Shown in pieces: positions 1 through 12,336 of a stretch of 64,000 bases of DNA. The position numbers were made by a program, and so were the translations under genes. Each line of letters begins with the position of its first letter. Within the stretch, counting starts at the first letter, position 1. This DNA comes from Spirochaetota bacterium (lineage in GTDB: Bacteria > Spirochaetota > UBA4802 > UBA5550): contig CAXXHB010000003.1 in the NCBI GenBank assembly GCA_963664815.2, positions 3,552,001-3,616,000 on the forward strand. Direction: 5' to 3'. Under the pieces are notes generated by a model. That model was given only the letters and a program-made list of their open reading frames with translations. It had not been told where the DNA came from and did no database searches.

Positions 1-1120
1 TAATATCATCTCTTGAAGTCACCTCCGGGAAAAATGTTCCCAGTTCCTCTCCGGATTTGCCAACGGTAGCAGTGCATGAATATATCTTCCCTGTATAATC
101 GAAAGCCCATTCGCTTTTACAGGCGGGGCATGAATCAAATAACGGATGTGGAAGCTCACCGTTGTCAAAAAGAAACTTTGAAACTGAAAACAGAGGCCTG
201 TGAAACTCAAGTATATGAGGATGCTCATTTATAAGTTTATACAGCTTTTCATACAACTCCACCCGTTCAAAAAGTTTTTTATTACCTGCCATACAGTGAT
301 GCAGTTCATAATTTCTCCCTATCTGTGTTTTAAACAGCGGATTTTGTGTCCATCCCTTTGATATTGCAAAAGATGCAAAATCCGGGAGGTTATCAATATT
401 CTCCCTGTCTATAACCATTCTGAGATTTATCGGAAACCCGTTTCTCAGAGATTCATCTATACCTGCAACTATACGGTCAAATGTCTCACCCCTGTTTTTC
501 ATATAGCGCCGTCCGTCATGGACTTCACGCGTACCATCAAGTGTAACCTGTATTTCTCTAATATTCCCCTCAGACAGAATATTCATGTAATCAACCAGGT
601 TGTAACCGTTTGTAACAACAGCAAGATCCGTTTTTTTCATCGACGCTTTTTCTATAATCATCCGGAGATCATTACGGTTTTTATCGCCCGGAAGAAGCGG
701 TTCGCCGCCGAATATTGTTATATACTTTTTCCTGCCGATGAATTCCCTTTCTATATAGGCAAAGAAAGCATCCACAGCATGTTCAGTCAATGGCGCCTTC
801 TCAGGAGCATACCCATCCTGATAGCAGTATGAACAGGCGAAATTGCATTCATAACCAGGCACAAAAAATATCTGTATTTCTGAATTTTCTCTCTCCTCGA
901 TAAAATCAAGATATGCCAGTTTGTATCTCCGGTTCTCATCAGATTCATCTGAGAGATATCCCTTTGCAGCATACTCTTCCATGTCTGAATATTCACCCTT
1001 AATTACTTCGGCGGCTTTATCGGGAGTAAGAATATCAGCATTCCGGGACAGGGAATTAAGAATAAAATAATTCTCCGAATCTGCCAGTTTTCCAAATATA
1101 TTATGTTTTGAAAATTTCAT
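1..1120 (-). CDS. Radical SAM/SPASM-domain protein, putative peptide maturase (3' end runs off the window)
   Basis: Hand translation from ATG at 1120: MKFSKHNIFGKLADSENYFILNSLS...CNFACSYC (CxxxCxxC)...FGGEPLL...VTNG...QVTLDG..VHD.RR...CPACKSEWAFDYTGKIYSC (SPASM Cx12Gx4C). Open to base 2, so absent from the ORF track. Confidence 0.93.
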   Translation of the reverse strand, partial: MKFSKHNIFGKLADSENYFILNSLSRNADILTPDKAAEVIKGEYSDMEEYAAKGYLSDESDENRRYKLAYLDFIEERENSEIQIFFVPGYECNFACSYCYQDGYAPEKAPLTEHAVDAFFAYIEREFIGRKKYITIFGGEPLLPGDKNRNDLRMIIEKASMKKTDLAVVTNGYNLVDYMNILSEGNIREIQVTLDGTREVHDGRRYMKNRGETFDRIVAGIDESLRNGFPINLRMVIDRENIDNLPDFASFAISKGWTQNPLFKTQIGRNYELHHCMAGNKKLFERVELYEKLYKLINEHPHILEFHRPLFSVSKFLFDNGELPHPLFDSCPACKSEWAFDYTGKIYSCTATVGKSGEELGTFFPEVTSRDDI

Positions 1121-10094: not shown

Positions 10095-10650
10095 TGAACT
10101 CCCCCCGTGTTATTATTGTGATACAAAAATCAGTGTGTTATTTTTTATTTTATAATATTATCATGTCAATATAAATATCATTATTGTATACATCATATGC
10201 GATTATAAAACATAATGGATATGACATGATACCCCGTTTAAATTTTTCGATTTATCCCCGGAAATGATAAAAGAACGCCGCTTTTAACTTACAATATTGA
10301 ATTCATTTTTATGCATATTGATGGATTATACTTTGAGATTATGGCTTGATTACTCTCGGAGAGATTTTTAAAACAATATTTTCTGTCTATTTATGTTGTA
10401 CCTCTCTTCATATCTATGAACAGGATAATTACGGTATAAGTAAAAACGGCTGAATCCGAAACAGTACCCGCATCCATATTCCTGTCAGCCCGAAAAATTC
10501 TGAAAATATAACAATCTGTCTGGTTAAAGTAAGAATTATTGATCTCCTCGGTTTACTGAAGACCTGAAAATATCCATAAGCGCAAATATATAAACTCGCG
10601 TAAGACACTATTAATAGAAAAATACGCATTTTTCGAAATGTTCAATACAT

Positions 10651-10745
10651 TGCCATTTCAAACGACGTTGCTCAGTAGAAGTGTGAGAAATCTAAAATTT
10701 AATGTAAAAAACCGATTTCTCAGTCGCTATCGCTTCTTCGAAATG
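10651..10745. repeat. REP/REPIN-like inverted-repeat element, interrupted at its right end by IS110
   Basis: tgccatttcaaa...gagaaatc / gatttctc...ttcgaaatg; the missing terminal aca lies at 11600-11602, beyond the IS. Confidence 0.65.
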
Positions 10746-10767
10746 TACTGTGTTTCAGTACAAGCTT

Positions 10768-11367
10768 TTAGTTTATACTGAAACAATTTGGATCATAACC
10801 TCTATTATATTTAACGATAGCAAAAACCTGACGGATCAGTTTGTTTGCCACTGCAATAAGCGCGACTTTTTATCCTTACCTTTCTCCAGCATCCGTCTAT
10901 ATAATCTAATACAATCCGAATTATACTTGGATGCTGATAATGCTGCCAGACGATTCTTGTTTTGAATTTTTTGTTTGCTGTAAATCATCAATCGTATTCA
11001 AAAAAGCCTTTTTTTCTGCCGATTTTCTGAAATTTCTTTATACGGAAACGGTTTCTCTTAGAATCCACTTTATCGGTTTTAGCACGCATCATTTTCATAT
11101 CGGCATAACGCTTCACAATCAATGGATTTACAATAGACACGATATATCCCTTCTTGTTTTAAAAAACTCAGCGAGTCGCTGGTGATACACTCCTGCTGCT
11201 TCCATCGTTAAAATATACTCCTCGATATTACCTTTCCGGCTTTTTCTGTATACCTGTTCAAAGCCCATCTTCGAATTTTCAACCTGGAAATGTTCAATCT
11301 TATTTCCATCAAAAAAAGTCACATCAACTGTTTTCTTCGATACATCAAATCCGATTGACATTTTCAT
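10768..11367 (-). pseudogene. IS110 recombinase/transposase pseudogene
   Basis: MKMSIGFDVSK...MEAAGVYH (RuvC-like DEDD domain), then frameshifted NPLIVKRYA...KTDKVDS, joined to C-terminal ALSASKYN..C..LY.R...KGK/KVALIAVANKLIRQVFAIVK; central part absent. Confidence 0.9.
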
Positions 11368-11400
11368 AGAACCCCCCATATAGTGTTGTTACGCATGATT

Positions 11401-11587
11401 GAGGGTATGATCTCTTCTCTTGCATCGCATGATACAGGCTTTATGCCTAATGTACTGCTCAGAGTAGAGATGGAAGACGGTGGGATTAACATTTCGAACG
11501 GTCTTTTGACCTATAACAAAAATAATCTTTTCCCCAGTCTTTATACCCCTCTTTGCATTTCGGTTTTGAGGGACTTCTCCTGAAACC
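11401..11587 (-). ncRNA. IS110 bridge RNA (target- and donor-binding loops)
   Basis: Two stem-closed internal loops with inner hairpins, whose guide segments match this element's own target (TGTCAT|TTCGAA) and donor junction (CAGTACAT|CGTAT). Confidence 0.8.
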
Positions 11588-11926
11588 CAACATACGATGA
11601 CATATTAATGCACTAAATCAATCATAAAGAGCTATCGTTTAAAAAACAAATCACAGTAAATTAAATACAGGAGTGTGGGGGGGGGATACTGCTGCATAAT
11701 ATTTTAATGCTGTTAATATACGGGAGAACATCCTGCATGCAGAGGATCCTCCTGTATATAACAAACATGGAACATAATAAATCAGGCTTTCTGTTCCTCT
11801 TTCACCTCGAAACCGGGAACTGTACCCCATATTGCCGGTTTTAACAGTAAGAATTAAAAAAGATCATTAACCATAACATTTTAACAATCCCTTCTTTCCA
11901 GAAAATTGTTAAAATGTTGATTCCTG

Positions 11927-12187
11927 TCAATGTTTATGGTCATGTTTCTCATTTTCATGAGCCGGATGAACATGTTCATGCTGTCCATGCTCTCCATCAT
12001 GAGTATGACTATGCATATTTTCACTCACATCATGTGAATGAGGATGTTTGTGTTCATGTTCATGTTCATGTTCATGTTCATGTTCATGACCGTGTGCATG
12101 TTTTTCCCCGTTATGCTCGTGTTCATGTTCATGTTCGTGTTTATGCTTGTGATCATGAAGATGTTTATGTTCGTGGTCGCCCTTCAT
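11927..12187 (-). CDS. His-rich 86-aa protein, putative Ni/Co/Zn storage protein or chaperone
   Basis: AGGAGG RBS before ATG 12187; (HE/HK)n runs, about 34 His in 86 aa. Confidence 0.75.
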   Translation of the reverse strand: MKGDHEHKHLHDHKHKHEHEHEHEHNGEKHAHGHEHEHEHEHEHEHKHPHSHDVSENMHSHTHDGEHGQHEHVHPAHENEKHDHKH

Positions 12188-12336
12188 AACATTCCTCCTG
12201 CTTTTTTTTAAATTTATTACTGATATAATTACCGGCATCCGTATTAATCCGTATACTGCTTTAAATAAAGATACTTCTCAATTATAAAAAGTCAATATAT
12301 AATACTGATATATTTTTAAAACATGTCAATACCAGA

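Follow-up and report, generated by a model that had tools for sequence, protein, structure and literature searches.

The window, by which we mean the whole 64-kb stretch of DNA that was analysed, carries on its minus strand a decayed element of the IS110 group at 10746-11596, with the left end CGTATGTTGG... and the right end ...ACACAGTA. Read on that strand, the left junction is ..aatatgt-CAT-cgtatgttgg.. and the right junction is ..acacagta-CAT-ttcgaag... The left target flank TATGT (11600-11604) belongs to a palindromic host repeat and is followed by the left copy of a shared word, the core CAT (11597-11599). The right copy of CAT, located by direct reading of the minus strand (10743-10745), is followed by the right target TTCGAA (10737-10742), which was delimited by the same reading and by the comparison of guides with flanks. 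Counting one CAT, the element is 854 bp long, and its relatives measure about 1.24 kb. Its non-coding ends comprise 229 nt on the left versus 22 nt on the right; there are no terminal inverted repeats, and CAT is the only word repeated at the junctions, with no duplication past the core. A long left and a short right non-coding end is the arrangement described for the IS110 group (Durrant 2024, PMC11208160). The right end additionally contains a perfect 7-bp hairpin (TGTACTG..CAGTACA, 10744-10762) over the donor word, which is absent from the relatives inspected.

The surroundings of the element are as follows. On the same strand lies a His-rich ORF of 103 aa (11927-12238), composed mostly of His-Glu/His-Lys repeats, which is upstream of two genes, one for an ABC-type substrate-binding protein (10094-8520) and the other for a permease (8568-7516). 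These may form a metal-uptake cluster with the dead element in between. A 64-nt stretch at 11781-11844 is 100% identical to positions 1499-1562 of locus L104, which is on another contig of the same genome, a site that resembles the 3' end of a coding region, and contigs from public runs break at both borders. Scanning the element's left flank for tRNA genes gave none, and no inverted repeat was found in the degenerate flanks at the settings used.

What remains of the recombinase is a pseudogene at 10768-11367 on the minus strand, traced by tblastn with six full-length relatives. Residues 1-72, 68-104 and approximately 109-152 are spread over three different frames and are followed by residues 265-296 and 292-324; approximately residues 153-264 are missing, and with them the part that corresponds, in the alignment with IS621, to its catalytic serine region. 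An N-terminal ORF of 83 aa matches the PF01548 (DEDD_Tnp_IS110) domain with 1e-07 and 32.3 bits (cut-off 29), a second fragment attains 20.4 bits with the same profile, which is under the cut-off, and the motifs GFDVS, MEAAG and KTDKVD are visible in the fragments. The C-terminal Tnp domain with the catalytic serine (PF02371) is missing from the window copy and is found, by precomputed Pfam annotation, in the full-length relatives. Since the region of the serine domain is lost in the former and kept in the latter, the window copy is a remnant of an IS110-group member. One such relative, the 325-aa protein of a full-length element in a sister-genus genome (L006), can be aligned from residue 5 to residue 318 with the transposase of IS621 (8wt6; E 1.8e-40), such that the IGID, EATG, KTDxVD and SG motifs line up.

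The original prediction had looked to the genome for a full-length copy of the recombinase and had implied a working system; neither idea survives. The assembled genome encodes no cognate recombinase, its only intact IS110 genes (361 aa) being 23% identical to the family recombinase, and a DNA search recovered no second copy of the element in it. With its recombinase destroyed and no cognate in the genome, the window copy cannot act on its own. The unrelated 361-aa recombinase is itself present in two intact copies (L002 1486-2571 and L003 883-1968). Relatives of the element are thinly spread in genomes: a DNA search of 100 relatives gave partial matches in only three other genomes, a protein search of 401 genomes of the phylum found relatives in four, and a scan of genome contigs gave only four loci. 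Accordingly, the family was gathered mainly from metagenome contigs. Of 8,000 candidates scored in the protein database, 849 were relatives at E <= 1e-40, and an alignment of 42 relatives led to 285 metagenome stretches encoding a relative, of which the best 80 were kept.

The candidate bridge RNA gene occupies the non-coding left end of the element. RNAfold of 11600-11385 places two stem-loops within a closing helix (MFE -58.8 kcal/mol, z = -3.34), and only one of 200 shuffles folds as well. The 5' stem-loop, predicted to bind the target, spans 11474-11541 and consists of outer stems (11541-11523 with 11488-11474), an internal loop and an inner hairpin at 11511-11500 (GGUC AAAA GACC). Similarly, the 3' stem-loop, predicted to bind the donor, spans 11411-11470 with an outer stem (11470-11461 with 11420-11411), an internal loop and an inner hairpin at 11448-11436 (AGGC AUAAA GCCU). 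Both inner hairpins and both outer stems, as well as the four guide words treated below, thus lie on the minus strand where the original prediction had drawn them, RNAfold returning the outer stems. Its rendering of the first hairpin loop as 'tttt' was a plus-strand reading: the hairpin itself stands, and the RNA has AAAA there. Two stem-loops with internal loops, the target loop 5' of the donor loop, on the strand of the recombinase and in its left end, is the layout of a bridge RNA.

We then drew by hand a structure of six helices over 26 aligned left ends, namely one closing helix, three in the target loop and two in the donor loop. It contains 37 pairs, and 88.8% of the cells are paired versus 37-49% when the partners are slid against each other; 25 of the 37 pairs display compensatory changes on both sides, and none of 500 shuffles matches the observed values. 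Helices 2-4 of the target loop are paired in 87-100% of the cells, again with compensatory changes. Left unaided, RNAalifold was hampered by gaps in the outer stems and recovered just three short helices, namely both hairpins and the inner closing stem of the target loop.

A covariance model from homologous left ends had been proposed as a check, and the one built from these 26 sequences bears the prediction out. In the window it matches 11395-11553 on the minus strand over model positions 1-166 (134.4 bits, E 2.2e-33), and in total it gives 51 matches in 49 of the 61 sources, at 48 loci besides the window, each 5' of a recombinase gene. The 12 sources without a match comprise the two unrelated IS110 loci of the same genome and ten that are mostly truncated upstream or far more distant. 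The window site is the sole match in the whole genome, and there is none beside the two 361-aa recombinase genes. Scanning 10500-11900 against Rfam returned eight weak matches (E 0.83-9.4), far under the gathering scores, and no bridge RNA family among them. One further locus (L092) has two bridge RNA genes of the family head to head, at 1-171 (minus) and 369-542 (plus), about 200 nt apart, as expected if two copies entered both ends of one palindromic repeat.

The internal loops hold four words that correspond to the junctions. In the target loop, the left target guide (LTG) UGUUAU (11513-11518) equals TGT plus CAT with one C-to-U wobble, and the U at 11520 additionally matches target position -5; the right target guide (RTG) UUCGAAAUG (11490-11498) is the exact reverse complement of CAT plus TTCGAA. 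In the donor loop, the left donor guide (LDG) CAGUACAU (11450-11457) equals the right end CAGTA plus CAT, and the right donor guide (RDG) AUGCGAUG (11423-11430) is the reverse complement of CAT plus CGTAT with one G:T. All four are on the minus strand. The 5' sides of the loops hence read as the top strand of left target plus core and left donor plus core, and the 3' sides are complementary to core plus right target and core plus right donor. This is the rule of IS621-type bridge RNAs, in which the top strand is matched by the 5' loop sides and complemented by the 3' sides (Durrant 2024, PMC11208160), and the two-loop LTG-RTG-LDG-RDG layout that had been proposed fits it. The 9-mer CATTTCGAA has three occurrences in the 64-kb window versus 1.18 expected, at the right junction, at the RTG site on the other strand and at the neighbouring degenerate repeat end; the 8-mer CAGTACAT occurs three times versus 1.22 expected, two of these being the right end and the LDG. 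Beyond such word counts, the decisive support for the predicted guides lies in their covariation across homologues.

A regular-expression parse returned the loops and flanks of 32 loci, 22 of them with a right flank, which reduce to 19 unique guide-flank events. In 18 of the 19, the RTG pairs perfectly with the right target at +1 to +5, amounting to 92 of 95 pairs versus a permuted mean of 56.8 (maximum 76); none of 20,000 permutations reaches 92, a figure that, like all permutation figures given here, overstates independence since the loci are related. The extended set added 36 model matches, leaving out the window row, four matches on the minus strand and ten without the AUG anchor (distant subfamilies). 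Here 31 of 34 unique events, with 15 guide words, are perfect in the five nucleotides after CAT (161 of 170 pairs versus 97.9 permuted; 0 of 10,000 permutations), and the three misfits are L036, L067 and L074. Position +6 pairs in the window copy; it matches in 8/19 events of the first set, no better than permuted, and in 10/34 of the extended set. The predicted programmable part of the RTG in this family is the five nucleotides beside the core only, the sixth being without covariation.

The left target guide behaves differently from position to position. Positions -1 and -2 are an invariant GT. Position -3 matches in 23 of 27 (permuted 16.1; 1 of 10,000 permutations) and in 34 of 46 in the extended set (permuted 18.8; 0 of 10,000); position -5 gives a weaker signal (16/27, attained by 11 of 5,000 permutations; 20/46, by 188 of 10,000); and position -4 is at chance level (5/27 and 15/46). 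Shifted registers, tried for a longer left guide, produced no consistent signal. The left guide has at most two programmable positions, so left recognition is mainly by invariant letters, which are incapable of showing covariation. On the donor side, the RDG agrees with the left end at +1 to +2 in 20 of 20 cases, 10 unique pairs of the classes CG, TG, CC and TA (permuted 10.4; 0 of 10,000), and at +3 in 9 of 10, the exception being the G:T of the window. Variants of the LDG agree with their own right ends, examples being UAGUACAU, CGGUACAU, CAGUUCAU, CAGAACAU and CAGCACAU, a comparison that is partly circular in the extended set, where right ends were found through the LDG word (at most one mismatch).

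Covariation of the guides with target and donor in homologues, which the original prediction had named as its touchstone, is thus observed for the RTG, for LTG position -3 and for the RDG. The same data bear on the thought that the transposase gene simply has a structured 5' leader of an ordinary kind and that its complementarity to the junctions arose by chance. The words are indeed short (6-9 nt) and the left guide leans on invariant letters; against this, the RTG, LTG -3, RDG and the helices covary over dozens of loci and the covariance model matches the window with 134 bits, and we consider a chance origin barely conceivable.

Concerning the core, the RDG of two subfamilies has a bulge, with AU and G separated by one additional base (UAGGAU(U/A)G versus CATCCTA), which is consistent with the core being AT. 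The simplest reading is that the shared CAT is an AT core together with a preceding C that is common to donor and target. The CT core dinucleotide, a feature of the IS621 type, is not found here; CAT stands at both junctions in the window and in the relatives. In IS621 an AT core is reported to support recombination, and the second core letter, T, is described as almost invariant (Hiraizumi 2024, PMC11208158). The CAT core is a variant compatible with membership among the IS621-type bridge RNAs, with the T kept. Hence, the description of a CAT/AT core unlike CT and of a longer right guide holds as such, with the covariation of the right guide limited to five nucleotides. The epithet of a new bridge RNA was overstated, since bridge RNAs have been predicted in 85.7% of IS110-group elements (Durrant 2024, PMC11208160) and an AT core is already reported to work in IS621; the family differs from IS621 in its shared CAT, its short left guide and its longer right guide. 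Among distant relatives (L048, L051 and L015), we observed four loop segments with other core words, apparently CGT or GT, and TAT, and in L048 a match of 9-10 nt between the left guide and the left flank. Within this branch, then, both the core and the geometry of the guides seem to vary.

The site of insertion is itself a repeat. The right flank at 10682-10745 has 38, 35, 23 and 10 matches in four sister genomes, and the repeat to which it belongs (loci L100-L106) is a palindrome of about 100 nt with a second inverted repeat inside, of which the window retains 10651-10745 and 11600-11641. The former segment, on the minus strand, is the rest of the host unit, in which the inverted repeat is nested and the second end, cgtttgaaatggca, is degenerate, and it has dozens of copies in the sister genomes. 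The two ends of intact copies are ..TGTCATTTCGAAG.. and ..TTCGAAATGACA.., or more fully ..(A/C)(A/T)GTCATTTCGAAGAAG.. and ..GTTCGAAATGACAAG... The ends can also be written as GTCATTTCGAA / TTCGAAATGAC and the inner inverted repeat as GAGAAATC / GATTTCTC. Contigs with other copies part from the window at 10745 and go on with ACAG (TTCGAAATG-ACAG), and what precedes the intact repeat copies is similar to the element's left flank. The uninterrupted copies L101 and L102 read ATATGTCATTTCGAAG, as does the reconstructed empty site, and the empty form of the locus would read ..TATGTCATTTCGAAG... The empty target that had been reconstructed, TGTCATTTCGAA, is thereby borne out by uninterrupted paralogous and sister-genome copies of the repeat and not by an orthologous empty locus, a search for which in the genus found repeat copies and one match to the His-rich gene only.

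In its own genome the target word GTCATTTCGA occurs 17 times versus 14 for the reversed control, which is no enrichment, and approximately three intact repeat units are present as convergent pairs about 95 nt apart. The relatives sit in analogous palindromes ending in GTCAT plus a variable word, and it is this word that the right guide tracks. Such GTCAT-ended palindromes flank relatives in metagenome contigs that are otherwise unrelated.

The RNA of the window copy departs from the family at several points. Compared with the closest relatives, it lacks six nucleotides (AUAGAG) just 3' of the RDG, so that the outer stem of the donor loop is in a shifted register; the deletion takes one strand of a helix and an AU that is kept in all 25 other aligned sequences. 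Its LTG reads GUUAU versus GUCAU in the family, a U-for-C wobble found at the same position in L048. A -10-like hexamer, TATGTT (11589-11594, minus; TATATT or TATGTT in relatives), and a -35-like hexamer, TTGTAC (10758-10763, minus; TTGAC(T/A/C) in the right ends of 12 of 22 relatives), both identified by eye, would be spaced by 17 nt across the circle junction. These two would make a promoter only in an excised circle, and in the window copy the pair TTGTAC / TATGTT is degenerate.

Public sequencing runs were consulted for this region, and none of those listed as containing it is an RNA run. No joint spanning the element occurs in the contigs of four runs, and a metagenomic run with an uncertain RNA-Seq label contains pieces of a relative with about 90% similarity; neither result bears on expression. 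A contig of one run (X3) covers 10834-11641 without a difference at a depth of 109 versus 28 for the flank, and turns into unrelated sequence at 10834, 88 nt inside the right end of the element; it may represent a second, rearranged copy in that sample.

These features invite the question of whether the 854-bp element might be a non-autonomous mini-IS110, mobilised in trans by a cognate recombinase from another strain, a plasmid or a phage. Both ends, the four guides and the fold are intact despite the wrecked coding part, the stem of the donor loop can re-pair in a new register after the 6-nt deletion, with a U-to-A change at alignment column 90 that fits, and the X3 contig has its raised depth. 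However, the assembled genome has one copy and no cognate recombinase, the X3 contig departs inside the element and so does not look like a clean transposition product, the RNA regions are the most conserved part across the whole family anyway, and the otherwise invariant AU after the RDG is lost. We therefore regard mobilisation in trans as quite unlikely. A broader version, in which a CAT-word lineage with a right-heavy guide co-diversifies with widespread GTCAT-ended repeats and the window copy is a selected, recombinase-less mini-element with a compensated stem, we likewise hold to be rather doubtful; if true, the 854-bp copy would be a trans-mobilisable unit of only an RNA and two ends.

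It is also possible to imagine an exaptation in which the RNA serves the host as a small RNA or leader, for instance of the genes for the His-rich protein or the ABC transporter, independent of recombination. Its preserved structure and its position between the His-rich ORF (12238-11927) and the substrate-binding protein gene on the same strand would suit such a role. Yet there is no hint in the sequence of a host target, a consensus scan for a sigma-70-like promoter 5' of the RNA on the same strand in the integrated state found none, no RNA run is listed for the stretch, and the guides still match their own ends and flanks, as a recent insertion followed by decay predicts. Exaptation is accordingly very improbable.

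Taken together, the anatomy of the element, the fold, the covariation within the family, the kind of target and the ruined recombinase gene lead us to a reading that we hold with high confidence: an IS110-group element has its bridge RNA gene here, at 11401-11587 (minus strand) within the long left end, and this copy is a relic with its ends and four guides but without the recombinase. Lacking the recombinase, it is most likely immobile. By homology to IS621, an intact relative would excise as a circle, whose joint of right end and left end would create a promoter. The RNA transcribed from it would fold into the target-binding and the donor-binding loop and would be bound by the recombinase, the 3' loop sides pairing with the top strand (core plus right target, core plus right donor), and the DEDD/serine recombinase would exchange strands at the shared CAT. 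Under this mechanism, the natural recognition of the family would be N-x-N-G-T | CAT | N5 at the end of a palindromic host repeat, and natural retargeting would sit mostly in the 5-nt right guide.

At the level of the genome, an odd intergenic region is thereby accounted for by a dead insertion sequence within a host repeat. The window copy is a well-preserved fossil of a known class and itself adds little because it is inactive. The family, which may already stand in the ortholog tables of Durrant 2024, offers a compact collection of bridge RNAs retargeted in nature. Its elements are 1.24 kb long and encode a recombinase of 325 aa, and the loci collected contain at least 15 words of the right guide.

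Among known systems, the parallels with ISPpu9 and ISPpu10 of Pseudomonas putida concern the target. These IS110-family elements insert into repetitive extragenic palindromes with convergent paired target sites, and orphan copies of the RNA gene are reported for ISPpu9 (PMC12288879, 10.64898/2026.03.19.712850). They differ in their CT cores, in the RNA of ISPpu9 being downstream of the transposase gene and in an unrelated host repeat. The seekRNA of ISEc21 (Siddiquee 2024, PMC11187229) resembles the present RNA in that the upstream non-coding region encodes an RNA needed in cis or trans and in that there is no target duplication, the seeming duplication being one copy of the core; it is a different element with a different target.

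The closest comparison is with IS621 of E. coli (PMC11208160, PMC11208158). In both, the RNA lies in a long left end with the target loop before the donor loop, the bottom strand is the partner of the 5' loop sides and the top strand that of the 3' sides, insertion is into a palindromic repeat, the core ends in T, and the recombinase is homologous end to end (L006 versus 8wt6). In IS621 a promoter is made at the joint of right and left end, and the hexamers identified by eye would make one in this family. The differences begin with the shared word, which is CAT here versus CT, and with position 7, where target and donor have a C in common. No more than two positions of the left guide vary (-3 and -5, -4 being unpaired), whereas in IS621 the nine non-core target positions were described as reprogrammable; the right guide has five covarying nucleotides, in contrast to the 4 bp of the IS621 RTG with the right target, extendable to 7. 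The asymmetry of the guides is thus reversed. Moreover, an extra closing helix (helix 1) surrounds both loops, and the elements are only about 1.24 kb long.

The same differences set the family apart from ISCro4/IS622 (Perry 2025, 10.1101/2025.05.14.653916; PDB 9t56), with which it shares a homologous recombinase (E 1.4e-39) and the logic of a bridge RNA with handshake guides. Unlike in that system, the G after the core complement can here pair with C7 of both partners, such that only the next letter discriminates: the U of the target loop versus donor A6, and the A of the donor loop versus target T6. These letters are invariant and, as far as the sequences indicate, would be consistent with a handshake in this family. 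Relative to IS621 and IS622, the family hence offers a distinct guide geometry, namely a short left guide, a right guide of 5-7 nt and the C held in common at position 7, which bears on the handshake rule used in the design of IS621 and IS622 guides.
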